Assembly: GCA_045617275.1 (NCBI GenBank)
Contig: JAZLII010000063.1
Coordinates: forward strand, 22,477 to 86,476
DNA from: Bacteroidaceae bacterium
GTDB lineage: Bacteria > Bacteroidota > Bacteroidia > Bacteroidales > Bacteroidaceae
Direction: 5' to 3'
DNA: 64,000 bases
The notes under the pieces were generated by a model. The model had not been told where the DNA came from and did no database searches. It saw only the letters and a program-made list of their open reading frames with translations. Every line of letters starts with the position of its first letter. The first letter of the stretch is position 1. Of this stretch, positions 23,031 through 59,557 are shown piece after piece. The position numbers and the translations under genes were made by a program.

Positions 23031-23091
23031 GCGCATGCATCGGTCAAGTCAGGCGCATGCATCGGTCAAGCCAGGCGCATGCATGAAGCAG
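23031..23091. repeat. 22-bp tandem repeat x2.7 (GCGCATGCATCGGTCAAG[TC]CAG)
   Basis: Units at 23031-23052 and 23053-23074, partial unit at 23075-23091. Each unit starts with the palindrome GCATGC. Confidence 0.85.
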
Positions 23092-23126: not shown

Positions 23127-23433
23127 TTTTTTCAAAAAAATGCAAACACTCTACCAAACATACACAACCACCTCAGATTCACAATGTTAACAAGGTAGAG
23201 TCTACGTCAAACACTCTACCAACACTCTACCAACACTCTACCAAGACTCTACCAGGAGGCATTCTGTTTTGCATTGAAACGATCGTCCTACAAAATGAAA
23301 AGTAGGTAGAGTGTTGGTAGAGTCTTGGTAGAGTGTTGGTAGAGACTTGAGGATTGACTCTACCTGTGTATTTAACTGATATTCTGCAATATACACCTCT
23401 TTGGTAGAGTGTTGCCCATTTTTTTCAAAAAAA
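23127..23433. repeat. About 300-bp nested palindrome built from 12 copies of ACTCTACC/GGTAGAGT, including 4+4 inverted 11-bp iterons
   Basis: Outer arms 23127-23158 and 23400-23433 (TTTTTTCAAAAAAATGCAAACACTCTACCAAA and its near-complement). Inner arms 23211-23254 (4 x ACACTCTACCA-type units) and 23305-23348 (4 x GGTAGAGTGTT-type units) are 40/44 complementary, around a 50-bp spacer. Confidence 0.85.
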
Positions 23434-36704: not shown

Positions 36705-38153
36705 TTACTCACCCTGTTGAGATTGTTGAGGTTGCTGGGGCTTGTCTGAATTGCCATGGTGGCGATTGCCGTGACGACGCGGTTTTCGGTCATGATGACG
36801 CTCGTCTGAAGGCCTGTCTTGCTTGGGTTCACGCTCGCCACTACGCTTTTCGTGACGCTTCTCCTCCTGCTGGCTTTCTGTCTTTCCTGCAGACGTCTCC
36901 TCGCGCTTAGGCTCACGTCCTTCACGTTTTCCTTCGCCATCCTCACGTTTTCCTCCACGATCCTCGCGCTTTCCTTCACGGTTCTCACGCTTTCCTTCAC
37001 GGTCCTCACGCTTGTCGTTGTTGCGCTTCTTCTTCTTTTTCTTTTTGTCGAAACGATTCAGGTCATCCTGAGTAGCCAAGTCGATGGGCTTCTCAGGCAG
37101 ACTGCGTCCACCCTCTTCCAGAGTCTCAGGATTCTCGCCCTTGCGATTCATCTGGATGATTTCCATCGCACGCTGTGCGGAGATGGTAGTCAGGTTGGCT
37201 GCCATTCGCTTGTCCGTGCTGTAGGTGATCATGCCAGACAGGATGTCGGCCTTGAAGTAGAAGTACTCACCATCAGCCGTATGAAGCGTGATCTCTCTGC
37301 TGGGCAACTTGCGTGTAGCCTCTACATACTGGTCGGCCTCATAGTTCATGCAGCACTTCAGTTTGGCACACTGGCCTGCCAGTTTCTGCGGATTGAGTGA
37401 GATATCCTGAAAACGCGCTGCCGCGGTACTTACGCTAACAAAGTTCTTCATCCAAGTGGCACAACAGAGTTCACGGCCGCAAGGACCAAATCCTCCAATA
37501 CGACCTGCCTCCTGGCGAGCACCGATCTGCTTCATCTCAATACGTACGCGGAACTCCTCTGCCAAGACCTTGATGAGCTGACGGAAATCCACACGGCCAT
37601 CGGCTATGTAGTAGAAGATGGCCTTGTTGCCATCGCCCTGATACTCCACGTCGCCTATCTTCATCTCAAGTCCGAGATCCTTTGCTATCTGGCGGCTCTT
37701 GATCATGGTCTCATGCTCCTTGGCCTTAGCCTCCTCGTACTTCTCCATGTCCACAGGCTTTACCTTACGGTAGATACGCTTGATGTCGTCAGGAGACTTC
37801 AAGTTGACCTTCTTCAGTTGAAGAGCCACCAGCTTTCCTGTCATCGTTACGGTACCGATGTCATGTCCGGGAGAAGCCTCAACGGCTACGACATCTCCTT
37901 TCTCGATAGGCAGATTGTTGATATTGTGATAATATCCCTTTCGTGTATTCTTGAACTGCACCTCCACCAAGTCGGTGAAATCCGTATTGCCAGGTATGTC
38001 GGCCAGATAGTCATGGATATTGAGCTGGAAAGCATCCTTTCCGCATCCCTTGGCACACAAGCCTCTACCACCGCCACCACACATGAAAGGCAGTTCGTTG
38101 GCACTTGTCCTTCCGGCCATATTCTCCTGCAACTTATCTATCTCTTCTGTCAT
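36705..38153 (-). CDS. PSP1-domain protein (RicT/YaaT-like) with a highly charged repetitive C-terminal tail
   Basis: PSP1 core (IGARQEAGRIGGFGPCGRELCC). The tail KKKKKKKRNNDKREDREGKRENREGKREDRGGKRE... is encoded by about 21-bp tandem repeats near 36890-37010. Confidence 0.8.
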   Translation of the reverse strand: MTEEIDKLQENMAGRTSANELPFMCGGGGRGLCAKGCGKDAFQLNIHDYLADIPGNTDFTDLVEVQFKNTRKGYYHNINNLPIEKGDVVAVEASPGHDIGTVTMTGKLVALQLKKVNLKSPDDIKRIYRKVKPVDMEKYEEAKAKEHETMIKSRQIAKDLGLEMKIGDVEYQGDGNKAIFYYIADGRVDFRQLIKVLAEEFRVRIEMKQIGARQEAGRIGGFGPCGRELCCATWMKNFVSVSTAAARFQDISLNPQKLAGQCAKLKCCMNYEADQYVEATRKLPSREITLHTADGEYFYFKADILSGMITYSTDKRMAANLTTISAQRAMEIIQMNRKGENPETLEEGGRSLPEKPIDLATQDDLNRFDKKKKKKKRNNDKREDREGKRENREGKREDRGGKREDGEGKREGREPKREETSAGKTESQQEEKRHEKRSGEREPKQDRPSDERHHDRKPRRHGNRHHGNSDKPQQPQQSQQGE

Positions 38154-41463: not shown

Positions 41464-41496
41464 AATTTTCAATTCTCAATTCTCAATTTTCAATTC
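41464..41496 (-). repeat. 7-nt tandem array (AATTGA[AG] x4.5 on the minus strand) just downstream of the GH51 stop
   Basis: The plus strand shows TCA at 41469, 41476, 41483 and 41490. That gives TGA every 7 nt on the gene's sense strand. Confidence 0.8.
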
Positions 41497-41499
41497 GCC

Positions 41500-43482
41500 T
41501 TACTTCTTTGCCTTGAAGATAACGAAGTTCTTACCTGCCACGGTGGCATTGATGGTATTGCCTGTAGCCTTCAGCAAAGCCTCCTGGGGAACGATGGCAT
41601 TGGGGTTGTCCACCGTGTTCTCCATCTCATAGTCGCTGCAGTCCAGTGTGATGGTGTTCACCTTGCTGATGGTACCCTTCACGCCCTCCAAAGCGATCTT
41701 GATGGTCTTAGGCTGCTCTGTAGTGTTGATGACCTTGACGATGTACTCACCGGTCTCTGCGTCATATACGGCACTGCTGAAGATGCCATCCTGACCCTTG
41801 GGAGTAGGATTGCTGATGGTAGTGGCCAGTACGTTGGTACCCTTGTTCTGAGCGTAGAGGGCCTGCACATAGTAGCTCACGGTCTTAGCGCAACGGAGGT
41901 TGTCAAACCAGATAGCATCGGGACGCCACTGCCAGCCTTCCACATGAGCAAACAGAGGAGCATAGGTGGCCATGTGTACGATATCGGCATTCTTCTCAAG
42001 GTTGGTCATGAAAGCTGCCTCATAGATGCTGGCACCTGCGTGATTGTACTTCTTGCCCTTGTCATGGCAAGCATACTCACCGGCAAACACCTTGGGACCC
42101 TTACGGTCATACTCATCATAGCGGTACATCTCGTTCTTGAACCAGTTGATGTCACGATAGAAATGCTCGTCCACGAGGTCTGCCTTCAGCTCCTTCATGG
42201 CAGTCCAACCCAGGTCGAAGTCCTGACCCTCACTGTTAGGACCACTGGTACCGACGATCTTCACCTCGGGATGAGCCTTACGGATGGCATCCATGAAGAC
42301 CTTCAGACGCTTGCTGTATGCCTTGTTGTCCTTATAGTCCCACTGCTCGTTGCCCACGCCGATGAACTTCAGGTTGAAAGGCTCGGGATGACCCATGTCG
42401 GCACGCATCTTGGCCCACTTGTTCTTGGCAGGATCGCCATTGGCGAATTCAATCAGGTCGATGCAGTCGTCGATGTAGGGCTGCAGGTTGTCCATATCTA
42501 CGTGTACCTTCTTCTCATCGCGGATTTCGTTCTGGAACTGACAAGACAGACCTACGCTGAGTACGGGCAGGGGCTCTGCGCCAATCTGCTCAGACAGGCG
42601 GAAGTACTCGAAGAAACCGAGACCGTAGCTCTGGAAATAGTTGGGATAGTAGCGAGAGGTGAAGGTATAGTGCCAGCGATTCTCGTTCAAAGGACGATTC
42701 TCCACGGGACCTACACTGTTCTTCCACTGATAGCGGCTCTCCAGGTCGGTACCCTCAACGATACATCCACCGGGGAAACGGAAGATACCGGGGTGCATGT
42801 CGTACAGTGCCTGAGCCAGGTCCTTGCGCATACCGTTCTCGTCACCATTGTAAGTATCAACGGGGAAAAGACTTACATGCTCCAGGTCGGTGGTAACCTT
42901 CGAGTCACCCCAGACACGCATGTGGGCACGCTCCAATGTCTTGTTGGGAGTCAGCACTACGGTGTACTTCTTCCACTCCTTGCCCTGGATCTCGACACCA
43001 CCGTTGGCCACCTTCTGGTCCTCACCCATGGTCGCATTGTCCACCAGGTCAATCCAGATCTTACTGTTGCCGCCTTCGGGACAACGAGCCCATACGCTAA
43101 ACTTATACTCTGCGCCCTTCTTGATACCCATGCCGAAGAAACCGCTGTTCTCTATCATGGTATGCTTGTGTGCATGACCAGAGGGAGCCAGACGGACATA
43201 GTGGGGATTCTTATCGAAAGGACCATCGTTCTGCAAACTTACCTTGCCGCTGATATCCCAGCCGGCAAAATGATTGGGAAACTCAAACGAACGGTTCATG
43301 ACCAACTCTGCATACAGACCGCCGTCTGCCGCATAGTTGATATCCTCAAAGAAGATACCGTACATCGTACTCTGCACAGGTGCGCCAAGCTTGGCAGTCT
43401 GCACCGTGATGGTGTTGTCTTGTGCCATGGCTGAAGCCGAAACTGCCAGCGAAGCACCTAAGATAAGATTTCTTAATTTCAT
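41500..43482 (-). CDS. GH51 alpha-L-arabinofuranosidase
   Basis: Signal peptide. GGLYAELVMNRSFE, FRFPGGCIVEG, IGVGNEQW (catalytic Glu context). 660 aa. Confidence 0.85.
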   Translation of the reverse strand: MKLRNLILGASLAVSASAMAQDNTITVQTAKLGAPVQSTMYGIFFEDINYAADGGLYAELVMNRSFEFPNHFAGWDISGKVSLQNDGPFDKNPHYVRLAPSGHAHKHTMIENSGFFGMGIKKGAEYKFSVWARCPEGGNSKIWIDLVDNATMGEDQKVANGGVEIQGKEWKKYTVVLTPNKTLERAHMRVWGDSKVTTDLEHVSLFPVDTYNGDENGMRKDLAQALYDMHPGIFRFPGGCIVEGTDLESRYQWKNSVGPVENRPLNENRWHYTFTSRYYPNYFQSYGLGFFEYFRLSEQIGAEPLPVLSVGLSCQFQNEIRDEKKVHVDMDNLQPYIDDCIDLIEFANGDPAKNKWAKMRADMGHPEPFNLKFIGVGNEQWDYKDNKAYSKRLKVFMDAIRKAHPEVKIVGTSGPNSEGQDFDLGWTAMKELKADLVDEHFYRDINWFKNEMYRYDEYDRKGPKVFAGEYACHDKGKKYNHAGASIYEAAFMTNLEKNADIVHMATYAPLFAHVEGWQWRPDAIWFDNLRCAKTVSYYVQALYAQNKGTNVLATTISNPTPKGQDGIFSSAVYDAETGEYIVKVINTTEQPKTIKIALEGVKGTISKVNTITLDCSDYEMENTVDNPNAIVPQEALLKATGNTINATVAGKNFVIFKAKK

Positions 43483-45765: not shown

Positions 45766-45931
45766 AACCAAGAACTTTGTGCTCCGTATCGACGAGCAAA
45801 CCATGTCCGCCATCGAAGCTTGGGCCGCTGACGAGTTTCGCTCCGTCAACGGTCAGTTGCAATGGATCATAGCCGAGGCTTTGAAGAAGAGTGGTCGCGT
45901 GAAGAAGGAGAAGGCTCAAAAAAAAGTTTGA
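45746..45931 (+). CDS. Arc/MetJ-type ribbon-helix-helix DNA-binding protein
   Basis: FVLRIDEQTMSAIEAWAADEFRSVNGQLQWIIAEALKK fits a beta-strand/helix/helix RHH pattern. The last codons and the TGA lie inside the inverted-repeat arm. Confidence 0.6.
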   Translation: MATKENKTKNFVLRIDEQTMSAIEAWAADEFRSVNGQLQWIIAEALKKSGRVKKEKAQKKV

Positions 45932-46262
45932 TTTTGTAGTTTCACAGTTTCACGCTTTCACATTTTGGGTTTTATACGGCGTTGCTATCCAAGCAGTGCC
46001 TTATCGCCAAGACATAAGGTTTGTACATTTTTTCTATATGTCACGGGTGGGGGCGGATAAGAATACACCTGAGGTTAGATTAGAACACACGTGTTGATCG
46101 GTCAAACACACACGTGTATTATCGACACATGACCATTAGCGAAGTAATTGTTTTGAATAGTTCGTGCGCTCAAAGCATCATGGAGATCCGGCCGATAACC
46201 TCTGCCCCAGGACGATTTTTGTGAAACCGTGAAACTGTGAAACTACAAAATCAAACTTTTTT
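45920..46262. repeat. 43-bp near-perfect inverted repeats (42/43) flanking a 257-bp segment
   Basis: Left arm 45920-45962: AAAAAAGTTTGATTTTGTAGTTTCACAGTTTCACGCTTTCACA. Right arm 46220-46262 is its complement, with one C/G mismatch. Each arm contains 3 tandem 8-mers ([AG][GC]TTTCAC). Confidence 0.9.
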
Positions 46263-47716: not shown

Positions 47717-50188
47717 ATGAAGTCCTTTTCCCTACTTATCACTTCATTATGCCTATCGTCTGCACTCTGGGCACAGCGTAGCGAGACCATGCTGACAGAA
47801 GGATGGCATTTCCATCGCGGCGAGGCGACCAATGCACAACAAACACAGTTCGACGACGCTAAATGGCAACAGGTCAGCGTCCCACACGACTGGGCTGTCT
47901 ATGGTCCTTTCGGCGTGAGCAATGATCTGCAAAACGTAGCCGTGACACAGAATGGAGAAAAAGAAGCCACAATGAAGACTGGCCGTACCGGCGGCCTACC
48001 CTGGGTGGGCATAGGTTGGTATCGCACCACCTTCGATGCTCCCAAATCGGGTGCCACAACGCTTCTTTTTGACGGTGCCATGAGCGAGGCGCATGTCTAT
48101 GTCAACGGCCAAGAGGCTATCTTCTGGCCCTATGGTTACAACAGTTTCCATGTGGACGTATCCAACCTCGTACATCGTGACGGCACACCCAACACGCTGG
48201 CCATACGCTTGGAGAACCGCGACGAGAGTAGCCGTTGGTATCCCGGAGCAGGCTTGTATCGCAACGTACACGTCATCCACACCGACTCCATCCACATCCC
48301 CATTTGGGGAACTTACATCACCACGCCTCATGTAGAGAAGGATTTTGCCAGCGTCAAGTTGCAAGTTGAGGTGGTGGGCAACAAGGGTAAGGCCGTTCGC
48401 CTTGATACCGAGATCCTTTCGCCAGAAGGCAAGGTGGTAGCTAGCAGCAGCAAGCAGACGGTGACACGCGAAGGACATCCCTTCGAGCAGACACTGCTGG
48501 TAGAGAAGCCCGCCTTATGGTCGTGCGAGACGCCCCATCTCTACACAGCCGTGACAAAGGTTATCGTAGACGGCAAGGAGCGCGACACTCAGCGCACCAC
48601 CTTCGGTATCCGCAAGATCGAGTACGTGGCGCACAAAGGTTTCTTCCTCAATGGCAAGAATATCCAGTTCAAGGGTGTCTGCAACCATCACGATCTGGGT
48701 CCCTTGGGTACGGCTATCCACGTGGATGCCCTCCGTCACCAGTTGACCATGCTCAAGGCGATGGGGTGCAATGCCATCCGAACCAGCCACAACATGCCTG
48801 CCCCCGAACTGGTGAAATTGTGCGATGAAATGGGACTTATGATGATGGTGGAGCCCTTCGACGAGTGGGATCAGGCCAAGTGCAAGAACGGCTATCACCG
48901 CTACTGGAAGGAGTGGGCAGAGAAGGATATGGTCAACATGCTTCATCACTATCGCAACAATCCCAGCGTAGTGATGTGGAGTATCGGTAATGAGGTACCC
49001 ACGCAGGGACGCAAGGACGGCTATAAGATGGTGGACTTCCTCCAAGGCATCTGCCACCGCGAGGATCCCACACGCCCTTGTACCTGTGGTATGGATCAGG
49101 TGGGTACGATCTTGAAAAACGGCTTTGGCGCTACCGTCGACATACCTGGTTTCAACTATCGTGACCAGTACTATGAGGAGGGCTACAAGACTCTTCCTCA
49201 GGGATTCATCTTAGGTAGTGAAACGGCCAGTACGGTCAGCAGTCGTGGCACGTACATGTTCCCCGTGACGTTGAAGAAGCAGGCTCGCTACGAAAATCAT
49301 CAGAGCAATGGCTACGACACAGAGGCTTGCTCTTGGAGCAACGTGCCCGACCTTGACTTCTGGCTCGAGGATGACAACCCATGGCATATGGGTCAGTTCA
49401 TCTGGACCGGTTTCGACTACCTCGGCGAACCTTCCCCCTACGACACCAAAGACTGGCCCAGCCACTCTTCCGTCTTCGGTATCATTGACCTTGCTTCGTT
49501 GCCCAAGGATCGCTACTACCTCTATCAGAGCAAGTGGGCTCCCGAGGCCAACACACTTCACATACTGCCTCACTGGACATGGCCCGGACGTGAAGGCGAG
49601 GTAACTCCCATCTTCGTCTATACCAGTGCACCTGAGGCCGAGCTCTTCATCAACGGAGTGAGCCAAGGACGCCAGAAGAAACTCTCCAAGACCGAGGCAG
49701 AAGCTCTGCAGAAGACCGACCCACTGTGGCAGCAGCGACGCTATCGCCTGATGTGGACCGACGTGAAGTATCAGCCCGGAGAGGTCAAGGTGGTAGCTTA
49801 CAACGCAGACGGCAGTGTGATGGGAGAGAAAACGGTAAAAACTGCCGGTAAACCCGACCATTTAGTGCTTACGCCCACCAATCTGGACGAGCCCAAGGCC
49901 GACCCATCAAATGCCCTTTATTACGTAACCGTAAGCGTAGTGGACAAGGACGGCAATCCCTGCCCCAACCAGACAGACTTGGTACAGTTTGCAGTAAAGG
50001 GTGCTGGTAAGTTCCGCGCCGCTGGCAATGGCGATGCCACCAATCTCGACCTCTTCCATCTTCCCCAGCACCATCTCTTTGCCGGCCAACTCACAGCAAT
50101 AGTCCAGCGAACCAGCGAAAGCGGAAGCATCATTCTTGAAGCAAAAGCCAAAGGAATGAAATCAGCCAAGCTGGTGATTGAGCGTTGA
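47717..50188 (+). CDS. GH2 beta-galactosidase
   Basis: Signal peptide. CNHHDLGPLG, NAIRTSHN, WSIGNEV (acid/base Glu). 823 aa. The terminal codons and TGA lie inside the heptamer array. Confidence 0.85.
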   Translation: MKSFSLLITSLCLSSALWAQRSETMLTEGWHFHRGEATNAQQTQFDDAKWQQVSVPHDWAVYGPFGVSNDLQNVAVTQNGEKEATMKTGRTGGLPWVGIGWYRTTFDAPKSGATTLLFDGAMSEAHVYVNGQEAIFWPYGYNSFHVDVSNLVHRDGTPNTLAIRLENRDESSRWYPGAGLYRNVHVIHTDSIHIPIWGTYITTPHVEKDFASVKLQVEVVGNKGKAVRLDTEILSPEGKVVASSSKQTVTREGHPFEQTLLVEKPALWSCETPHLYTAVTKVIVDGKERDTQRTTFGIRKIEYVAHKGFFLNGKNIQFKGVCNHHDLGPLGTAIHVDALRHQLTMLKAMGCNAIRTSHNMPAPELVKLCDEMGLMMMVEPFDEWDQAKCKNGYHRYWKEWAEKDMVNMLHHYRNNPSVVMWSIGNEVPTQGRKDGYKMVDFLQGICHREDPTRPCTCGMDQVGTILKNGFGATVDIPGFNYRDQYYEEGYKTLPQGFILGSETASTVSSRGTYMFPVTLKKQARYENHQSNGYDTEACSWSNVPDLDFWLEDDNPWHMGQFIWTGFDYLGEPSPYDTKDWPSHSSVFGIIDLASLPKDRYYLYQSKWAPEANTLHILPHWTWPGREGEVTPIFVYTSAPEAELFINGVSQGRQKKLSKTEAEALQKTDPLWQQRRYRLMWTDVKYQPGEVKVVAYNADGSVMGEKTVKTAGKPDHLVLTPTNLDEPKADPSNALYYVTVSVVDKDGNPCPNQTDLVQFAVKGAGKFRAAGNGDATNLDLFHLPQHHLFAGQLTAIVQRTSESGSIILEAKAKGMKSAKLVIER

Positions 50189-50212
50189 GCGATGAGCGAT
50201 GAGCGTTGAGCG
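50178..50212 (+). repeat. 7-nt tandem array ([TA]TGAGCG x5) overlapping the GH2 stop codon
   Basis: TGA at 50179, 50186 (the real stop), 50193, 50200 and 50207, so all three frames are closed. Confidence 0.9.
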
Positions 50213-50248
50213 AAAAATCGAACCCTCGACGCCCAACGAAAAAAAACA

Positions 50249-50278
50249 GAAGGTCTCTCCTATGATGGAGAGACCTTC
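50249..50278. terminator. Hairpin between convergent GH2 and CobW-like genes
   Basis: GAAGGTCTCTCC-N6-GGAGAGACCTTC, with an A run upstream. Confidence 0.65.
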
Positions 50279-50291
50279 ATCGTTCAACCCT

Positions 50292-50337
50292 CCGCTCGGC
50301 CCTTTGGGACGCTTGCAGAGCGAAGCGGGGCAAGAAC
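50292..50337 (-). repeat. 46-bp intergenic element, copy 1 (identical copy at 58620-58665)
   Basis: CCGCTCGGCCCTTTGGGACGCTTGCAGAGCGAAGCGGGGCAAGAAC is 46/46 identical at both loci. Each copy sits 8-10 nt downstream of a minus-strand stop codon and is flanked by GTTGA[AG][CG] heptamers. Confidence 0.9.
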
Positions 50338-50344
50338 GTTCAAC

Positions 50345-51700
50345 CTAATCGCAGAGGCAAGCGTCGAGGGCCAACTTGATGTCTGCCTCATTCATGTGCT
50401 GGCCGATGAAGACCAACTTCTGCATACGGTCGCCATAGTACTCATCCCAGTCCTTAGCGGCTTGTGGATTCTGGTCCAAGAATTGTTCCAGTTCCTCCTG
50501 TGGCATAGTGGCATACCAGCGTCCGGCATTGCGCAGAGACACTTGCTTACCAGCCTGTTCGAACACGTAGCAGATATCCTGCTCATCGCGGAAGTAGCAC
50601 ATACCCTTGCATCGGATGATGCTCTTAGGCCACAGGCGAGCCACAAACTCGTCAAAACGACCTAAGTTGAACGGACGACGTGCATAATATACAAAGGTAC
50701 CGATGCCATATTCCTCACCATGTGCATGATCATGGTCATGATGATGCTGGCAATGGTGACAATGGCAGTCTGCCCCATGATGATGGTGGTGATGTTCGTG
50801 CTCATCTTCGTCGTCATCATCGTCATGATGGTGGTGATGATGCTCGTGTTCATCCTCGTCGTCATCGTCATCATGATGGTGGTTATGGTGCTCATGGTCA
50901 TCCTCGTCGTCATCGTCATCATGATGGTGGTGATGCTCGTGCTCATCTTCGTCGTCATCGTCCTCCACAGGTTTCTCTATCTCTGCTATCCAAGCAGCAG
51001 AGGTGGCCACTTTGTCAAAATCAAACAACTTGGTGTTGACGAGCAGATCCAAGGACACATCACAGTAGTCACAAGGGATAATCTCGGCCTTGGGCTGGAG
51101 GGCACGAAGCACCAGGGTGATACGTTCCAATTCTTCCGGAGCGACCTCAGAGGCCTTGTTGAGCAGGATGATATTGCAGAACTCGATCTGCTGGATGACC
51201 AGATTCTCGATATCATCCTCCTCCAGATTCTTGTGGATGAAGTCCTGACCTCCATTGAACTCGTCCTTCAGTCTCAAGGCATCCACCACGCTCACGATGC
51301 TATCCAGGCGCAGGAAACCGTCCTTGATATAGTCGGGACCCATGTCGGGAATGGAGCAAATGGTCTGAGCAATGGGGGCCGGTTCGCAGATACCACTGGC
51401 CTCGATGACGATATAGTCAAAACGGCGAAGTGCCATGAGGTCCTGCAACTGCTTCACGAGGTCCATCTTCAAGGTACAGCAGATGCAACCGTTCTGCAAG
51501 GGCACCAGACTGTCGTCCTGCTGATCGACGATGCCACCTTTTTGGATGAGGTCTGCATCAATATTCACCTCACCGATATCATTCACGATAACGGCAAACT
51601 TTATACCACGACGATTGGCCAGAATACGATTCAAAAGCGTGGTCTTACCGCTGCCCAGATAACCCGTAAGCAGCAATACAGGGATTTCAGGAACTGTCAT
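50345..51700 (-). CDS. CobW/COG0523-family metallochaperone GTPase with a very long His/Asp/Glu-rich insert
   Basis: The start MTVPEIPVLLLTGYLGSGKTTLLN at 51700 is preferred, because the track start at 51826 runs through the tRNA gene. CICC metal motif. About 85 aa of HDDDDDEDEHEHHHHH-type repeats, encoded at about 50721-50963. Confidence 0.85.
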   Translation of the reverse strand: MTVPEIPVLLLTGYLGSGKTTLLNRILANRRGIKFAVIVNDIGEVNIDADLIQKGGIVDQQDDSLVPLQNGCICCTLKMDLVKQLQDLMALRRFDYIVIEASGICEPAPIAQTICSIPDMGPDYIKDGFLRLDSIVSVVDALRLKDEFNGGQDFIHKNLEEDDIENLVIQQIEFCNIILLNKASEVAPEELERITLVLRALQPKAEIIPCDYCDVSLDLLVNTKLFDFDKVATSAAWIAEIEKPVEDDDDEDEHEHHHHHDDDDDEDDHEHHNHHHDDDDDEDEHEHHHHHHDDDDDEDEHEHHHHHHGADCHCHHCQHHHDHDHAHGEEYGIGTFVYYARRPFNLGRFDEFVARLWPKSIIRCKGMCYFRDEQDICYVFEQAGKQVSLRNAGRWYATMPQEELEQFLDQNPQAAKDWDEYYGDRMQKLVFIGQHMNEADIKLALDACLCD

Positions 51701-51735
51701 TTTCTTATTTCTGTTTAAATCAATTGTCCATATAC

Positions 51736-51770
51736 GAAAAACAGAGGTTGAAGGAAAACCATCACCTCTG
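51736..51770 (-). terminator. Hairpin + T run downstream of the tRNA
   Basis: Minus strand reads CAGAGGT-N15-ACCTCTG followed by TTTTT. Confidence 0.5.
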
Positions 51771-51780
51771 CGTTGCTTTG

Positions 51781-51854
51781 TAGCGGGGCCGGGGATTGAA
51801 CCCGGGACCTCATGATTATGAATCATGCGCTCTAACCAGCTGAGCTACCCCGCC
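51781..51854 (-). tRNA. tRNA with anticodon CAT (Met; a lysidine-modified Ile2 cannot be excluded)
   Basis: Manual cloverleaf fold: GGCGGGG / TA / GCTC-AGCTGGTTA-GAGC / G / CATGA-TTCATAA-TCATG / AGGTC / CCGGG-TTCAATC-CCCGG / CCCCGCT-A. 74 nt, with no encoded CCA. Confidence 0.85.
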
Positions 51855-51875
51855 ATCATTTCTTGATTGCGGGTG

Positions 51876-51883
51876 CAAAGGTA
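51876..51883 (-). promoter_or_regulatory. -7 box TACCTTTG upstream of the tRNA
   Basis: Reverse complement of CAAAGGTA, about 22 nt upstream of the tRNA 5' end. Confidence 0.45.
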
Positions 51884-51999
51884 GTGCATTTTTTTCTTCC
51901 ATGCAAGTATTTGGGCAGAAAAATGCAATAAAAGTGAGTATTCTTTCTTAAAGAATGCCAAAAAATAGGCTTTTAATTCCTAATTACTAATTTTTATCG

Positions 52000-52007
52000 T
52001 ACCTTTG
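52000..52007 (+). promoter_or_regulatory. -7 box TACCTTTG upstream of the lptF/G-like gene
   Basis: TAnnTTTG match, about 77 nt upstream of the ATG at 52084. Confidence 0.4.
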
Positions 52008-52083
52008 CAATCTATTATGCACACACGCACATATGCAACGTGTGCGTAGACGTAAATAGTATTAGAGTTAAAAGGAAAAAAGA

Positions 52084-53646
52084 ATGAGAATCATCAAGAA
52101 GATGGATCAGTATTTGCTGAAGACCTATCTGCAATTGTTTGCAGGTACGTTCTTCATATGCCTCTTCATCTTCCTGATGCAGTTCACCTGGCGCTATGTC
52201 AACGAACTTATCGGCAAGGGCCTCTCAACCGAGGTGCTGGGCAAGTTTTTCTGGTATGCTTCGCTCAACCTCGTCCCCATGGCTCTCCCCCTGGCCATCC
52301 TTTTGGCAGCCCTCATCTCCTTTGGCAACATGGGAGAGAAACTCGAGTTGCTGTCCATGAAAGCTGCGGGTGTGTCGCTCATTCGCATCCTCGCCCCCAT
52401 CTTCGTCTTTGTGATCTTCCTGAGTTTCGGTAGTTTTTATTTCCAGAACAAGGTCGGACCGGAGGCCACGAAGCAACTTCATGCGCTCATCTACTCCATC
52501 AAGACGAAATCGCCCGAACTGGAGATCCCAGAAGGAATCTTCTACAACGAGATCCCCGGCTACAACCTCTTCGTGGAGCGCAAGGACAGAGATACGGGTA
52601 TGCTCTACGGTGTGATGATCTACCACAATCCCTCGGGCTCCAGCGACACGCAGATAGTGCTGGCCGACTCGGGCCGCATGCAGAGCACCGCCGATCATAT
52701 GCACCTGAAACTGACACTCTACGGAGGCGAACGTTTCCAAAACATGTCGCAAAATGGAGGTCAGATGCTCAAGGCCAACATCCCATACATGAGAGAGACC
52801 TTCTTTGTAGAGGAAGACCTGATAGAGTTTGCCGACACCTTCGACGTGATGAATGCAGAGAACTTCTCCGGCCATGCTGCCACCAAGGATCTCGCTTCCA
52901 TCAATCATGGCATTGACTCCATCCAGCAGAGACTGAGCATGGTGGGGCACGACATTTACAGGTCGTACTGTGCATCCTTGCTCAACCGAGAGATCAAGCC
53001 AGGCCGTGCCGACTCTGCCAAAATCGTCAAGGGTGTGGCCAAGGTAGCCGTGCTCGACACACTGAAGGGTCGCCTCAGCCAGTCACAGCGCCAGGACGTG
53101 TGGAAGATGGCTCGCAGTTCTTCGGTTCAGCTGACCAACGAATGCGAATTCCGCTCTCTGGCATTCAACCTGGAGGAGACCAACAAGAACTACCGTCTGC
53201 ACTGGGTGGAGTGGCATAAGAAGTTCACACTCTCCGTGGCCTGTCTCATCTTCTTCTTCATCGGAGCGCCTCTTGGCGCCATCATCCGAAAAGGAGGTCT
53301 GGGTATGCCCGTAGTGGTGAGCGTGCTCATTTTCATCTTCTACTACATCATCAACATCAGTGGTGAGAAGTTGGCCAAAGCTGGCACCTGGGAGATCACC
53401 TTCGGCATATGGCTGAGCAGCATGGTACTGGCCCCCATCGGAGCCTTCCTTACCTACAAGGCCAACAACGACTCCGCGATGTTCAGCATCGAAGGCTACA
53501 TACTCCCCATCAAGCGATTCATAGAGCGGGTGAAGGGATGGCGCATGCGCAAGAGTCTGGCCACCGAGATAGCACCGGAGGATTCTCCCGAAGATAACAA
53601 CAACGTACAAGAACAGCAAGACAATGATAACACTCGACAAGATTGA
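52084..53646 (+). CDS. LptF/LptG-family LPS export permease
   Basis: YjgP/YjgQ-type N-terminus ([27 protein letters not shown]), a large periplasmic insert, and C-terminal TM helices. Confidence 0.8.
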
Positions 53647-54826
53647 AGAAGCCATCGCAGATTTCCGTGAAGGCAAATTCGTCATCGTAGTTGACGACGA
53701 AGACCGCGAAAACGAGGGCGACTTTATCACCGCAGCAGAGATGATCACTCCCGAAAAGGTGAACTTCATGCTGCAAAACGGACGAGGCGTGCTCTGCGCC
53801 CCCATCACTATCAGTCGTGCCAAGGAACTGGAGCTGGCACACCAGGTGGAGGAGAACACCTCCATGCTGGGCACGCCTTTCACCATCACCGTTGACCTCC
53901 TGGAAGGTTGTACTACGGGTGTCAGCGCCCACGACCGTGCCGCCACCATACGTGCCCTGGCCGATCCCAGCACCAAGCCCGCAGCCTTCGGCCGTCCCGG
54001 TCACATCAACCCTCTCTACGCCCAGGACAAGGGTGTCCTCAAGCGTGCAGGACACACCGAGGCAGGTATCGACATGGCTCGCTTGGCCGGACTGCAGCCC
54101 GCAGCTGCGCTCATCGAGATACTCAATGAAGACGGCACCATGGCTCGCCTGCCCCAACTCAAGGAGGTATCCGAGCGCTTTGGCATCAAGATCATCAGCA
54201 TCCGCGACCTCATCGCCTACCGTCTCAAGCAGGAGTCACTGGTAGAAAAGGGAGTGGAGGCCGACATGCCCACAGCCCACGGTCACTTCCGCATCATCCC
54301 CTTCCGCCAGAAGAGCAACGGACTGGAGCATATCGCACTCATCAAGGGCGAGTGGAAAGCCGACGAACCTATCCTGGTGCGCATGCATAGCAGCTGTATG
54401 ACAGGCGACATCTTCGGAAGTCGCCGTTGTGACTGCGGTGAACAGCTCCAAAAGAGCATGGAACTCATCGAGCAGGAAGGTAAGGGCCTCATCGTCTACC
54501 TCAACCAAGAGGGACGTGGCATCGGTCTGATGAACAAGATTGCCGCCTACAAGCTCCAAGAGGAAGGCGACGACACCGTCGATGCCAACATTCACCTGGG
54601 CTTCCAAGCCGACGAGCGCGACTATGGCGTCGGAGCACAGATACTCTGCGAACTGGGTGTCAGCAAGATACGCCTCATCACCAACAATCCCGTGAAGCGT
54701 GTCGGCCTTGAGGGCTACGGACTGGAGATCGTGGAGAACGTAGGCATAGAGATCAAGCCCAACCCCTTCAACGAGCGCTACCTCCGCACCAAGAAGGAGC
54801 GCATGGGACATCTCCTGAAACTGTAA
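53624..54826 (+). CDS. ribBA: Bifunctional 3,4-dihydroxy-2-butanone-4-phosphate synthase / GTP cyclohydrolase II
   Basis: [11 protein letters not shown] (RibB) and [19 protein letters not shown] (RibA zinc site). 400 aa. Confidence 0.9.
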
Positions 54827-54830
54827 ACGA

Positions 54831-54882
54831 ATTGAAAATTGAAAATTGAAAGTTGAAAATTGAAAGTTGAAAATTGAAAATT
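54831..54882 (+). repeat. 7-nt tandem array ([AG]TTGAAA x7) 5 nt downstream of the ribBA stop
   Basis: TGA at 54833, 54840, 54847, 54854, 54861, 54868 and 54875. Confidence 0.9.
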
Positions 54883-54907
54883 AATCATTGAATAAACTTT
54901 ACCAAAC

Positions 54908-55609
54908 ATGAACGAGTACGAAAGAAACTACGGAAACTATGGCGTTCAGGAAAATGCCATGGTAGTGACGATGAACAAAGTATACAGCTGGATGACACTG
55001 GCACTGGTAGCAACCGCACTGTCCGCATTGTATGTGGCTCATAGCGAAACCGTCCTTGGCATCATCTTCGGCAACCAGGCCATGCCCTGGATCCTGATGC
55101 TCGTCGAGGTGGGTGTCGTCATGTATCTCAGCGCACGCATCAACCGTATCAGCTATGCTACAGCCGTGACTCTCTTCGGTGTCTACTCCATCCTCAACGG
55201 TGTAGTACTCTCCGTCGTCCTCTTGATATACGAACTTAGCACCATCTATGCGGCATTCTTTGCCACGGCAGGCACCTTCGCAGCCATGAGTCTCATCGGC
55301 TACACCACCAAGAAGGATCTTTCCGGTCTGGGCGGCATCCTCACCATGGCTCTCATCGGCCTCATCATCGCCAGCCTGGTGAACCTCTTCCTCCACAATG
55401 ACACCATGACCAGCATCATCACCTACGCAGGTGTATTCATCTTCGTGGGCCTCACTGCCTACGACACGCAGAAGATCAAGCAGATGCTCATGTACAGTAA
55501 CGGTGCCGACCAGCGCAAGATTGGCATCATGGGCGCCCTGAGCCTCTACCTGGACTTCGTCAACCTCTTCCTCTACATCCTGCGCCTCCTTGGCAACCGC
55601 AGAAACTAA
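54908..55609 (+). CDS. Bax-inhibitor-1/YccA-family membrane protein
   Basis: 7-TM protein of 233 aa, with the conserved YDTQKIKQM and LYLDFVNLFLYILRLLG C-terminal region. Confidence 0.8.
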   Translation: MNEYERNYGNYGVQENAMVVTMNKVYSWMTLALVATALSALYVAHSETVLGIIFGNQAMPWILMLVEVGVVMYLSARINRISYATAVTLFGVYSILNGVVLSVVLLIYELSTIYAAFFATAGTFAAMSLIGYTTKKDLSGLGGILTMALIGLIIASLVNLFLHNDTMTSIITYAGVFIFVGLTAYDTQKIKQMLMYSNGADQRKIGIMGALSLYLDFVNLFLYILRLLGNRRN

Positions 55610-55768: not shown

Positions 55769-56962
55769 ATGAACACACTTTCCGACAGACTGAACCGCTT
55801 GGCACCCAGTGCCACCCTGGCAATGAGTCAGCGTAGCAGCGAGCTCAAGGCTCAAGGCGTTGACGTTATCAACATGAGCGTGGGTGAACCCGACTTCAAC
55901 ACGCCCGACCACATCAAGGCTGCTGCCATCAAGGCAGTGGAGGAGAACTGGAGCCGTTACTCTCCCGTTCCCGGTTATCCCGAACTGAAGAAGGCCATCG
56001 TCAACAAGCTGAAGAATGAGAACGGCGTGGACTACACTCCCGCTCAGATTTTGTGCTCCAATGGTGCCAAGCAGAGTGTCTGCAACGCCATCATGGCTCT
56101 GGTCAATGCCGGCGATGAGGTCATCATCCCCGCTCCCTACTGGGTAAGCTACCCTCAGATGGTTCTCCTGGCCGAGGGTACCCCCGTATTCGTAGAGGCT
56201 AAGATCGAGGCCGATTTCAAGATTACCCCCGAGCAGCTCGAGGCAGCCATCACTCCCAAGACTCGTGCCATCATCCTCTGCTCACCCTCCAACCCCACCG
56301 GTTCGGTATACAGCAAGGAAGAGCTCGAGGCTCTGAAGAACGTCCTGCTAAAGCATGAGCGCGTCATCGTCATTGCCGATGAGATCTACGAGCACATCAA
56401 CTACGTGGGCGAACATGCCTCTATGGCTCAGTTCCCCGACATCAAGGAGCGCGTAGTCATCATCAACGGTGTCAGCAAGGCTTATGCCATGACTGGTTGG
56501 CGTATCGGTTTCATCGCTGCTCCCGACTGGATTGTGAAGGGCTGCAACAAGCTCCAAGGCCAGTACACCAGCGGTCCTTGTTCTGTAAGCCAGAAGGCTG
56601 CCGAGGCTGCTTTTGCCGGCGACCAGCAGTGTGTGGAGGATATGCGTCAGGCCTTTGAGCGCAGAAAGAACCTCATCGTGAAGCTGGCCAAGGAGATCCC
56701 CGGTCTGGAGGTCAACGATCCTCAGGGCGCCTTCTATCTCTTCCCCAAGTGCTCAAGCTTCTTCGGCAAGGCTGATGGCGACCGTGTCATCAACAACAGC
56801 ACCGACCTGGCTATGTACCTCCTCGAGGTAGGCCACGTTGCCACTGTAGGTGGTGATGCTTTCGGTAGCCCCGAATGTTTCCGTATGAGCTATGCCACCA
56901 GCGATGAGAACATCGTTGAGGCTATGCGTCGCATCAAGGAGACTTTAGCAAAGCTAAAGTAG
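55769..56962 (+). CDS. aspC: Aspartate/aromatic aminotransferase (class I PLP enzyme)
   Basis: SKAYAMTGWRIG (PLP-lysine context) and NPTG. 397 aa. Confidence 0.85.
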   Translation: MNTLSDRLNRLAPSATLAMSQRSSELKAQGVDVINMSVGEPDFNTPDHIKAAAIKAVEENWSRYSPVPGYPELKKAIVNKLKNENGVDYTPAQILCSNGAKQSVCNAIMALVNAGDEVIIPAPYWVSYPQMVLLAEGTPVFVEAKIEADFKITPEQLEAAITPKTRAIILCSPSNPTGSVYSKEELEALKNVLLKHERVIVIADEIYEHINYVGEHASMAQFPDIKERVVIINGVSKAYAMTGWRIGFIAAPDWIVKGCNKLQGQYTSGPCSVSQKAAEAAFAGDQQCVEDMRQAFERRKNLIVKLAKEIPGLEVNDPQGAFYLFPKCSSFFGKADGDRVINNSTDLAMYLLEVGHVATVGGDAFGSPECFRMSYATSDENIVEAMRRIKETLAKLK

Positions 56963-56990
56963 TTGAGCGATGAGCGATGAGAGTTGAGCG
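56963..56990 (+). repeat. 7-nt tandem array ([TA]TGAG[CA]G x4) immediately after the aminotransferase TAG stop
   Basis: TGA at 56964, 56971, 56978 and 56985. Confidence 0.9.
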
Positions 56991-57008
56991 AAAGTATCAA
57001 CTACAACT

Positions 57009-57383
57009 ATGAAAGAGAACGGATTTAGACAACTACGTGTTTACAACGAAGCAATAGAGTGGATTGCAGAAATCTACCTATTGCTTCAGCATTTTCCACA
57101 AGAGGAAAGGTATGCACTTTGCGATCAAATCAAGCGGGCTGCAGTATCCGTGACCTCCAACATCGCTGAAGGGACTAGTCGCACATCAAGAAAAGAATAT
57201 GCCCACTTTCTGGAGATATCATACGGTTCTCTCATGGAAGTACAAAGCCAGCTAGATGTCTCTCTAAAAATAGGGTACATCACGCAAGAAATGCATACAA
57301 ACATGGACAACCGGATTACGACTATTTCCAAAATGCTTTCAGGCTTAAGATATTCTATCCTATCAAAAGAAGAGAACGGATAA
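57009..57383 (+). CDS. Four-helix-bundle protein (23S rRNA intervening-sequence protein family)
   Basis: LRVYNEAIEW...QIKRAAVSVTSNIAEGTSRTSRKEYAHFLEISYGSLMEVQSQL matches the family pattern as I remember it. Confidence 0.8.
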   Translation: MKENGFRQLRVYNEAIEWIAEIYLLLQHFPQEERYALCDQIKRAAVSVTSNIAEGTSRTSRKEYAHFLEISYGSLMEVQSQLDVSLKIGYITQEMHTNMDNRITTISKMLSGLRYSILSKEENG

Positions 57384-57417: not shown

Positions 57418-57494
57418 ATATTCTCAATTGAACGTTCTGCGATGTTACGCAAAGCTAAAATCCGCTCAACGTTCAACAATTTTGCAAAGCAAAA

Positions 57495-57659
57495 TTACAG
57501 AGAGATAGCGCCGCTAGGACAAGCATCTGCGCAAGTACCACACTCGGTGCACTCGTCAGGATTGATTGAATACTTGTCGCCCTCAGAGATAGCTCCTACG
57601 GGGCACTCATCGATACATGTGCCGCAAGCAACACAGTCATCACTAATTACGTAAGCCAT
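57495..57659 (-). CDS. 2x[4Fe-4S] ferredoxin, 54 aa (below the ORF-track length cut-off)
   Basis: Hand translation gives MAYVISDDCVACGTCIDECPVGAISEGDKYSINPDECTECGTCADACPSGAISL, with two CxxCxxCxxxCP motifs. Confidence 0.8.
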   Translation of the reverse strand: MAYVISDDCVACGTCIDECPVGAISEGDKYSINPDECTECGTCADACPSGAISL

Positions 57660-58584: not shown

Positions 58585-58619
58585 CGTTGATGCCAAGCAT
58601 CAAGCCTTCCCTCAACGTT

Positions 58620-58665
58620 CCGCTCGGCCCTTTGGGACGCTTGCAGAGCGAAGCGGGGCAAGAAC
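58620..58665 (-). repeat. 46-bp intergenic element, copy 2 (identical to 50292-50337)
   Basis: Identical 46-mer, same orientation. It lies immediately downstream of the minus-strand metallophosphatase gene. Confidence 0.9.
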
Positions 58666-58694
58666 CCTCAACGCTCAACGCTCAACCCTCAACG
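58666..58694 (-). repeat. 7-nt tandem array (GTTGAG[GC] x4 on the minus strand) overlapping the metallophosphatase stop
   Basis: The last codons T-L-R-V-E-R-stop are encoded by ACG TTG AGG GTT GAG CGT TGA. Confidence 0.9.
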
Positions 58695-59508
58695 TCACCA
58701 CGCCCACGAAGCGTCCGTTCTTGCCCTGGTGATCCAAGGCCACGTCGATGCCTTCGGCATCCTTGATGAAGTCGGGCACTTCCTGATAGGTATGCGTGTG
58801 TCCGCCCAGCAGCACGTCGATGCCTCGGGTACGGCTGATGAAGGCGGGGTCCATCTCTGGGTCAGTGCCCTTGCCCAAGTGTGACAGACAGATCACCACG
58901 TCGCAGTGCTCCTCACCTCTCAAGCGGTCTATCACGGGCTGAGCAGCCTCAGCAGGATCGATATATCTTGTATTGCCGATATTGGCCGCCGCCACCAAGC
59001 CGTCCATCTTCGGACTCACACCCAGTATGCCTACGCGCACGCCCGCGCATTCCTTTACTATATAAGGCTTCACCAGTCCCTCTACGGGAGTGCCGGTGAA
59101 GTCATAGTTGCAGCACACCACGGGGAACTTCGCCATGCGGAAGAGCTTCGCCATATTCTCCAGTCCGTTGTCAAACTCATGGTTGCCGATGGTGCAGGCA
59201 TCATAGCCCATCTCATTCATCAGCTTCACCTCCACCTCGCCCTTATATAGGTTGTAGTAAACCGATCCCTGTGAGAAATCCCCACAGTCTAGCAGCAGCA
59301 AGTCCTTGTGCTCCTCGCGCAGACGGTCCAGTAAGGCAGCCCTTCGCAGGTAGCCACCCTTGTCCGCCTCCTCCACATTAGGATTGTTGGGCGAAAGCGG
59401 TTCCACGCATGAGTGCGTGTCACTGGTATGCACGATGCACAGTTCCTTCTGTTGCGCCATCATCACGCTGCTCGTGATCCAGGCTATCAATATCAATATC
59501 TTTTTCAT
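58675..59508 (-). CDS. Metallophosphoesterase half of a split 5'-nucleotidase/UDP-sugar hydrolase
   Basis: Signal peptide. HTSDTHS, DCGDFSQGS and GNHEFD motifs. Confidence 0.85.
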   Translation of the reverse strand: MKKILILIAWITSSVMMAQQKELCIVHTSDTHSCVEPLSPNNPNVEEADKGGYLRRAALLDRLREEHKDLLLLDCGDFSQGSVYYNLYKGEVEVKLMNEMGYDACTIGNHEFDNGLENMAKLFRMAKFPVVCCNYDFTGTPVEGLVKPYIVKECAGVRVGILGVSPKMDGLVAAANIGNTRYIDPAEAAQPVIDRLRGEEHCDVVICLSHLGKGTDPEMDPAFISRTRGIDVLLGGHTHTYQEVPDFIKDAEGIDVALDHQGKNGRFVGVVTLRVER

Positions 59509-59529: not shown

Positions 59530-59557
59530 CGTCCTTCGTCCTTCGCTCAACGCTCCA
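59530..59557 (-). repeat. 7-nt tandem array (minus strand: TGGAGCG TTGAGCG AAGGACG AAGGACG) overlapping the 5'-nucleotidase C-domain gene stop
   Basis: The last codons V-E-R-stop are encoded by GTG GAG CGT TGA. Confidence 0.8.

Follow-up and report, generated by a model that had tools for sequence, protein, structure and literature searches.

We analysed a 64,000-nucleotide stretch of DNA from a Bacteroidaceae bacterium (assembly GCA_045617275.1, contig JAZLII010000063.1, positions 22,477 to 86,476; hereafter the window), in which tandem arrays of seven-nucleotide units stand at the 3' ends of genes, on the sense strand of the gene that they follow. These arrays are probably dispersed heptanucleotide simple-sequence repeats of a gut Bacteroidales genome, prone to slippage and with an orientation that is filtered by selection. 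The observation is real and non-random, and repeats of this class, with heptanucleotide units, have been described before in bacteria. Comparison with related loci shows that the number of units differs between strains, that arrays are present or absent at orthologous gene ends, and that very small inserts have landed in them or are flanked by them, namely a 46-nt core, elements of 72-83 nt and a small gene cassette.

Nine gene ends between 41 and 60 kb of the window carry heptamers of the TTGA type, each on the sense strand of the preceding gene (Table 1), and 8-9 of the 9 arrays overlap the stop codon or sit within 17 nt of it. Analysed with Tandem Repeats Finder (TRF), the window arrays have period 7, 4-7.6 copies and 80-92% matches. 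Three unit families were found, [T/A]TGAGCG, AATTGA[A/G] and AAGGACG, and a TTGA(G/A) core is conserved at strict 7-nt spacing across two of them. The arrays are intergenic or overlap no more than the last 1-3 codons; 4 of the 9 precede a co-directional start codon by 18-52 nt, while the remainder face a convergent gene. The initial annotation had listed four arrays of [T/A]TGAGCG units, and three of them stand (50178-50212, 56963-56990 and 58663-58694), while for the fourth, at 59530-59557, the description was overstated, as this array consists of two GAGCG units and two AAGGACG units, the latter with no stop codon. All four do lie on or against a gene stop on the sense strand, as had been claimed, and the same is true of five further sites that had not been listed. 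The statement that the arrays place a TGA in every reading frame holds for all except the fourth site, whose sole TGA is the gene's own stop.

Table 1. Heptamer arrays, composite elements and the terminator-like hairpin in the window, with the gene ends to which they belong
Feature	Position	Strand	Units and repeat statistics	Gene end and surroundings
Array, AATTGA[A/G] x4.7	41464-41497	-		4 nt past the alpha-L-arabinofuranosidase TAA (gene 41500-43482, -); the following start codon is 52 nt downstream
Array, [T/A]TGAGCG x5	50178-50212	+	TRF: period 7, 5.0 copies, 92% matches, unit TTGAGCG	GH2 gene (47717-50188, +), whose stop falls in the 2nd unit; TGA in all 3 frames
Intrinsic-terminator-like hairpin	50238-50278	-	12-bp stem, 6-nt loop, T8 run	cobW-like gene; strongest terminator-like site of the region
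Composite element	50280-50346	-	GTTGAAC unit, 46-nt core (50292-50337), then GGGTTGAACGA	cobW-like TAG (50345-50347) just before the GTTGAAC unit; heptamers sense for the cobW-like gene, inverted partner of the GH2 array
Array, AATTGAA x7.6	54830-54885	+		3 nt past the TAA of ribBA (53624-54826, +); 23 nt upstream of the next start codon
Array	56963-56990	+	TTGAGCG ATGAGCG ATGAGAG TTGAGCG; TRF 56964-56991, 4.0 copies	begins right behind the TAG of the aminotransferase gene (55769-56962, +)
Two units	57463-57477	-	GTTGAAC GTTGAGC(G), GTTGAACGTTGAGCG	17 nt past the TAA of the ferredoxin gene (57495-57659, -); inverted partner of 56963-56990, on the opposite side of the inserted 124-aa gene
Composite element	58609-58694	-	array 58666-58694, then 46-nt core (58620-58665), then AACGTTGAGGG (partial unit, 58609-58619)	metallophosphatase gene end
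Array	58666-58694	-	TTGAGGG TTGAGCG TTGAGCG TTGAGGG; TRF 58663-58694, 4.6 copies	metallophosphatase gene (58675-59508, -), whose own stop lies inside the array
Weak array	59530-59557	-	TGGAGCG TTGAGCG AAGGACG AAGGACG	end of the 5'-nucleotidase C-domain gene (59547-60293/60347, -); 22 nt upstream of the metallophosphatase start codon

Such an arrangement could in principle be a coincidence, that is, ordinary microsatellites lying near the gene ends of a compact genome. Intergenic DNA in the window totals only 7.4 kb in 41 regions, so that any intergenic repeat falls near some gene end. To be set against this are the results of a simulation, in which arrays were placed at random in the intergenic DNA and on a random strand: they fell on the same strand as a gene and no more than 20 nt downstream of its stop with a frequency of about 5% per array, as compared with 8-9 of the 9 observed, and the joint probability is about 1e-10. 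Moreover, the two-unit pattern TGAGCGNTGAGCG, with one mismatch allowed, gave 13 matches, while 0.59 were expected from 100 shuffles and none of the shuffles reached 13, and the same bias is seen in independent loci. Coincidence was already disfavoured and we regard it as extremely improbable; the earlier statement that these are not simple random microsatellites is confirmed for the window, where the arrays are far from random in how they are placed and oriented with regard to stop codons. Their orientation goes with the gene, not with the replication strand: in a stretch of 19 kb the plus strand has three of them and the minus strand five or six, alternating with their genes; a cause linked to replication strand (GC skew) was therefore ruled out.

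For comparison we used syntenic loci from close strains (L121-L123) and from relatives at different levels of GH2 identity: L253 (94%), L254 (93%), L127 (87%), L128 (82%), L129 and L130 (80%) and L255 (78%). Exact-protein look-ups gave no match for GH2 and ribBA, and that for rplS led to three syntenic loci. Going by relatives alone, namely Prevotella koreensis for the element and Bacteroidaceae or Mediterranea for GH2 (67% identity), the genome looks Prevotellaceae-like. Three unrelated proteins of the window end in ER through the codons GAG CGT TGA lying within an array, as the initial annotation had reported and the translations show: the GH2 beta-galactosidase-like protein (...KLVIER), the metallophosphatase (...VTLRVER) and the 5'-nucleotidase C-domain protein (...RVVVER). 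The accompanying idea that the arrays donate these C-terminal residues was overstated and, by the criterion that the annotation itself had set, is largely refuted by the array-free orthologues, which end in ...VIE, ...VE or ...VVEK. Concerning GH2, the locus of L253 is array-free at both gene ends, with a compact bidirectional terminator, and the protein ends in ...KLVIE (ATC GAA TAA); that of L255 ends with ATT GAG TAA, and L128 and L129, array-free at this end, have other short tails. The metallophosphatase of L127, also array-free, ends in ...VSVERYSK with a native GTG GAG CGC, that of L121-L123, where the array contains a nested 83-nt element, in ...TLSVEGRE or ...KLSVEGRE, and wider orthologues in ...VGTVSLMVE and similar; orthologues of the 5'-nucleotidase protein end in ...EGRIVVEK, ...EGRVVVKE and similar.

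At the three protein ends the arrays thus overlap native V/I-E codons, and the change in residues is +1 (R) for GH2, about -3 for the metallophosphatase and about 0 for the 5'-nucleotidase protein. The practical consequence for these proteins is small. This overlap is not a pure accident, because in each of the three cases the repeat unit has its match, (A/G)TTGAG, in the native gene end, and the match points to seeding of arrays at short matches or to their survival only where the protein stays unchanged. An insertion element that remodels C-termini, one of the roles first considered, is a description that fits the insertion-prone and variable nature of this DNA, but not the proteins, where the effect is at most one to three residues.

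The syntenic loci show that arrays have been gained, lost, expanded and invaded by small elements among the relatives. The array at the end of ribBA has 7.6 units in the window and 2-3 in L121 and L122, is degenerate in L128 and is lacking in L127; that at the end of the arabinofuranosidase gene has 4.7 units in the window and 5.7 in L127, with none in L129 and L130. At the ferredoxin end one metagenome strain has 14 additional bases (two more units), and the heptamers are absent from L127; more in general, L127, L128 and L129 miss the arrays at several orthologous sites. The array at the aminotransferase end goes together with an inserted gene for 124 amino acids (57009-57383), which has its matches in the families 23S_rRNA_IVP and bAvd, has inverted heptamers on both sides (56963-56990 and 57463-57477) and stands, cassette-like, in place of a plain bidirectional terminator; both are present in the window and in L121, and both are absent from L122, L127 and L128. 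Metagenome contigs covering the AATTGAA array (bin 54638-55004) had a depth of 128-459, as compared with about 5-15 in the flanks, and the array is therefore highly multi-copy in those gut communities; depth was high also over the tRNA-Met bin (51702-52068), as expected. These loci form a natural series for study, in which the same gene ends occur without an array, with arrays of different length and with nested insertions.

The nested insertions could also mean that the arrays are the footprint of mobile elements, in the sense that small non-autonomous elements would have them as their ends, their targets or the scars left by excision, with a putative recombinase favouring TTGAG-like sites near stops and the units deriving from repeated target duplication. 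Two identical copies of a 46-nt core are present in the window (50292-50337 and 58620-58665; 0 expected), each within heptamers of the same orientation and flanked by an 8-nt direct repeat that differs by site (GTTCAACC and CCTCAACG) and that, inside a tandem array, is not diagnostic. A family of 72-83-nt elements, sharing the motif GCCGAGCG and an internal palindrome (L121 7790-7941, L122 4134-4212, L127 12519-12591), is found in the relatives within the heptamer arrays of two different gene ends. At the GH2 end of L127 the array encloses a 72-nt element, goes on past it and is followed by an inverted array that abuts the cobW stop; at the metallophosphatase end of L121-L123 an 83-nt element lies inside the array, at the same place as the 46-nt core of the window, in one or two copies, and tandem duplicates are found in L121 and L123. 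That relatives carry different nested elements at the same array is in favour of mobility, as are the inverted arrays bounding the 124-aa gene, which is missing in relatives, and the very high metagenome depth over the arrays.

Also in favour of mobility are composites inside two reading frames of Prevotella koreensis. In this species the array-core-array composite occurs in three settings: past a gene; in sense in the spacer that separates two chrA genes, with 8 units in one assembly and 4 in another; and, in two cases, inside reading frames (L012 3730-5082 and 6212-6766), in frame and in the stop-free antisense orientation. In the SufS-like cysteine desulfurase of this species the composite adds about 42 residues (...FNPTSSLNAQPSSLNAPLGSDNGRFNSEAEKQRSTLNAQRSTL...), an in-frame insertion into a protein gene as in Rickettsia palindromic elements. 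A profile of the antisense-composite peptide, searched against 5.8 billion proteins, found only three small hypothetical open reading frames (ORFs) and led to one more intergenic composite, while BLAST gave no copies of the 46-nt core beyond the known ones. For annotation, it should be noted that gene callers end frames inside arrays and that composites may hide in frame, as in sufS of P. koreensis.

On the other hand, most arrays are free of a core, the flanks of the core are direct and not inverted repeats (inverted arrays do bound the 124-aa gene insertion), and in P. koreensis the array around the core is continuous and shows no clear duplication. Neither strand of the core folds significantly (z about +0.5), by which a structured RNA or DNA within the core is ruled out. 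No transposase or other recombinase gene was identified, and changes of one or two units are better explained by slippage. Taken together, we consider a mobile-element footprint an unlikely explanation of the arrays.

Beyond the window, three perfect TGAGCG units were looked for in a single genome of each species, and at least 120 loci were listed, in Gemmatimonadota, Verrucomicrobiota, Actinomycetota, Pseudomonadota, Bacteroidota (including P. koreensis) and others. Within about 1 Mb of fetched loci, all chosen for carrying one such array, we counted 217 arrays of period 7 as compared with 34 of period 6 and 42 of period 8; when GAGCG units were removed, the figures were 106, 31 and 41, respectively. 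Unit sequences vary from genome to genome. Orientation was evaluated on 147 heptamer arrays having a stop codon on one strand only: a sense gene end was found within -21 to +30 nt in 46 and an antisense gene end as close in 13, while 34 arrays lay inside antisense ORFs, just 4 of them near the 3' end of the ORF (read-through). Limiting the count to genes with their own stop left 22 sense and 13 antisense cases. In an independent test on AATTGAA arrays from unrelated metagenome contigs there were 20 sense and 6 antisense cases within 10 nt (p = 0.009), and 13 and 9 when only non-overlapping cases were considered. The orientation bias that the initial annotation proposed to look for genome-wide is thus present in other genomes, and real, but moderate only, and it owes much to frames that end at a TGA of the array itself. 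Coding copies of the arrays occur in the stop-free antisense orientation only.

An inverted partner within 200 nt is present for about 10-15% of the arrays, and in these pairs the stop-bearing arm is the 5' arm in 26 of 31 cases (10:1 and 16:4). Heptamers with no stop codon that abut a gene end have the G-rich strand as sense in 7 of 8, and units with the stop on the C-rich strand go the same way, with the G-rich strand as sense, 3:1; few as these cases are, they suggest that, besides stop codons, a G-rich or C-poor mRNA strand plays a part. If confirmed genome-wide, hairpin polarity and the preference for G-richness would constrain models of how heptamer repeats persist.

A scheme combining slippage and selection can be drawn from these data. 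Replication slippage would expand and shrink the arrays, and new copies may start where a few nucleotides already agree with the unit, for example in the native ...(A/G)TTGAG... of gene ends coding for V/I-E. Selection would then filter orientation, since by gene ends only the G-rich, C-poor, stop-bearing strand would be tolerated as mRNA. An array in sense would close any frame within 18 nt, with a change of 0-3 residues in the protein; an array in antisense would extend the protein through the repeat and would put C-rich unstructured RNA, similar to a Rho-loading site, into the transcript. The bias is weaker for genes with their own stop (22 to 13, and 13 to 9 for AATTGAA), as a tolerance filter predicts.

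Slippage with filtered orientation also meets with difficulties. The five window arrays behind independent stops are all in sense, 0-17 nt past the stop, an outcome not foreseen if overlaps are subject to a tolerance filter and nothing else. In L127 the GH2 and arabinofuranosidase genes keep their arrays at the same sites, and persistence at 87% GH2 identity is long for neutral, unstable repeats. For the spread of the unit to many loci no transposase, target duplication or donor was identified, and the orientation counts across genomes use crude ORF-based gene calls.

Some of these facts find a place in a different explanation, according to which the arrays are a selected 3'-end module: stops in all frames would halt read-through or frameshifted ribosomes before the terminator hairpin melts, and complementary arrays would be the stem arms for bidirectional termination or for protection of the 3' end. 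Besides the sense orientation of all five non-overlapping window arrays, the positions kept at 87% GH2 identity and the stop-bearing arm coming first in inverted pairs, this explanation draws on the predicted folds. The GH2/cobW spacer (50176-50300, 125 nt), in which the cobW terminator hairpin is enclosed by the GH2 array and the complementary heptamers of the cobW side, has a predicted fold of -55.6 kcal/mol (z = -8.25), and the corresponding spacer of L127, with its nested 72-nt element, reaches z = -7.6. However, plain terminators free of arrays suffice in L253, at 94% GH2 identity, and in L127, L128 and L129; about 85% of the arrays are without an inverted partner within 200 nt; and arrays internal to operons are unstructured (z = +2.1 for the ribBA spacer) and make no hairpin. 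In addition, the array at 59530-59557 has one TGA only, stop-less heptamers share the same strand preference, and the bias across genomes is weak for non-overlapping arrays. A selected 3'-end module is therefore unlikely in our opinion.

It is plausible that complementary sense arrays between convergent genes lengthen the terminator stem and that operon-internal arrays provide a purine-rich, unstructured stretch from the stop codon to the next start; both would be consequences of where the arrays lie and not proven functions. A more far-reaching possibility, which we find quite doubtful, is that of a widespread, actively targeted 3'-end module seeded at stop codons, with a fixed polarity in which the stop-bearing G-rich arm faces the incoming gene, selected so as to shield terminators, and the genes further downstream, against read-through ribosomes and the loading of Rho. 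Were it true, it would represent a general and unrecognised layer of gene-end architecture in many phyla.

Evenly spaced triplets bound by a multimeric protein are known in Bacillus, from HutP (UAG-N4 repeats) and TRAP (GAG/UAG repeats). By analogy, the arrays might be a protein-binding RNA site, in which a UGA or GAG triplet every 7 nt would be read by a ring-shaped or multimeric RNA-binding protein controlling the transcript 3' end or the translation of the next gene, but the likeness to HutP and TRAP sites lies in the 7-nt triplet spacing only. The strict spacing of the TTGA(G/A) core across two unit families, the specificity for the sense strand and the location of four arrays upstream of a start codon, at 18-52 nt, a placement also described for the TAACTGA repeats, would agree with such a site. 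Against it, unit number varies freely and relatives do without arrays, unit sequences differ between genomes, arrays also stand between convergent genes with nothing downstream, and no candidate protein turned up, none having been searched for. Nor did the analysis yield evidence of a dedicated termination factor or of an RNA-binding one. At gathering score, Rfam 15 recognised only tRNA in the window and no family for the arrays. We judge a protein-binding RNA site highly improbable.

Sigma-70-like matches inside the AATTGAA array were discarded as an artefact of its periodicity, and they are not relevant to Bacteroidales promoters. Three metagenome contigs of 63-68% G+C (L148, L202 and L232) carry AT-rich AATTGAA arrays between genes, with perfect inverted partners that make 28-bp A/T stems with G+C-rich loops, a composition strikingly foreign to the host DNA. 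Next to the GH2 gene, the cobW-like gene contains at 50712-50965 a 48-nt repeat in four copies coding for His/Asp-rich stretches, in which metagenome strains have deletions of 58-103 nt; it is a variable linker of metal-binding-like character. The mechanical ORF 50345-51826 is overlapped in its 5' part by the tRNA-Met gene (51780-51854, -), so that the start of the cobW-like gene must be further downstream; its orthologues in relatives have 434-453 amino acids.

Other repeats were found in the window. A 21-nt repeat (4.8 copies, 82% matches) at 36913-37013, in the minus-strand ORF 36705-38153, is an in-frame protein repeat of 7 residues. Two arms of 43 nt, 98% complementary, at 45920-45962 and 46220-46262, made of tandem 8-mers GTGAAAC[N] plus an A/T-rich tail, enclose 257 nt of intergenic DNA upstream of an aldose epimerase gene, and the layout (45920-46262) resembles a foldback element, an element of the type of miniature inverted-repeat transposable elements, or an invertible segment. 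In a long intergenic region at 23 kb (23031-23084, 23193-23253 and 23305-23365) there are a 22-nt repeat in 2.5 copies and inverted arrays of 11-mers, AACACTCTACC in four copies facing GGTAGAGTGTT in 3.6, with more single copies at 23127-23158 and 23400-23431; these arrays are a second family of inverted tandem arrays.

Concerning known systems, the heptamers called STRR (short tandemly repeated repetitive sequences) in the intergenic DNA of cyanobacteria host very small mobile insertions of tens of nucleotides; they differ from the arrays described here in units, cores and phylum. REP/BIME and REPIN sequences are short dispersed extragenic repeats at gene 3' ends, forming hairpins between convergent genes and linked to the RAYT transposase. 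However, the REP unit is an imperfect palindrome of 20-40 nt, while the unit of the window is a non-palindromic tandem 7-mer that pairs only between separate arrays, and the 46-nt core has no significant fold. Integron attC sites were also considered, since GTTGAGC fits GTTRRRY, and rejected: attC sites have RYYYAAC ... GTTRRRY on the cassette strand and are a single imperfect palindrome, while here the order of core sites is reversed (GTTGAGC ... GCTCAAC) and the units stand in tandem. The annotated genes next to the arrays included no integrase that was noted.

The initial annotation knew of no description of such an element, but heptanucleotide repeats have been published, including GGGAATC near stop codons and the limits set by TAACTGA stops. 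Heptanucleotide repeats are reportedly the most abundant kind of long simple sequence repeat (LSSR) in most prokaryotic genomes (Mrazek 2007, as summarised in PMC4679880 and PMC4692102), and polymerase slippage has been proposed as their cause (Mrazek, Guo and Shah 2007, via the same two papers). The arrays resemble LSSR in being tandem 7-nt units, mostly intergenic, over-represented with respect to neighbouring periods and variable between strains. In the window we found head-to-tail 7-nt copies beyond chance, mostly non-coding and polymorphic in unit number, and the excess of period 7 over periods 6 and 8 was found in the loci of about 1 Mb selected for carrying one array. The units of the window are different, and the summaries of that work in PMC4679880 and PMC4692102 do not report unit families tied to stop codons.

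In Xanthomonas, GGGAATC heptamers are found on the sense strand, no more than 50 bp from stop codons, and they form inverted pairs (PMC4692102), of which there are 70-75 per genome (Rehm et al. 2015, PMC4692102). The GGGAATC and GGGGA(T/C)T repeats of Xanthomonas and Nostoc are similar to our arrays as dispersed heptamers with inverted pairs, a G-rich sense strand and a length that varies between relatives, and the pattern of stop-proximal sense-strand heptamers with inverted partners is found at GH2/cobW, at aminotransferase/ferredoxin and in L127. They belong to another phylum, though, and their units are stop-free and capable of forming G-quadruplexes (PMC4692102), while the window units carry TGA, and TTGAGCG and AATTGAA, having no G runs, could not form a G-quadruplex.

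The TAACTGA repeats occur in forward orientation in the intergenic DNA of many operons in marine Beggiatoaceae, Cyanobacteria and some Bacteroidetes (MacGregor 2015, PMC4679880). Their stops limit the overlap with the end of a reading frame to 18 nt, reverse copies are translatable, and in Bacteroidetes they are accompanied by other heptamer arrays (PMC4679880). The likeness lies in the stop-bearing heptamer and in its forward orientation. However, TAACTGA is described mainly by its nearness to a downstream start (PMC4679880), while the window arrays are all tied to an upstream stop, half of them have no co-directional downstream gene, and their units are [T/A]TGAGCG, AATTGA[A/G] and AAGGACG. 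What appears to be new here, on sequence grounds, are unit families outside GGGAATC and TAACTGA, of the already known heptanucleotide kind. The cause and role of the commonest long simple repeats of bacteria are still debated, and the window with its relatives offers clear material for this discussion, the most reusable parts being the allele series, the bias in hairpin polarity and the hint that G-richness, rather than TGA alone, may set the strand.

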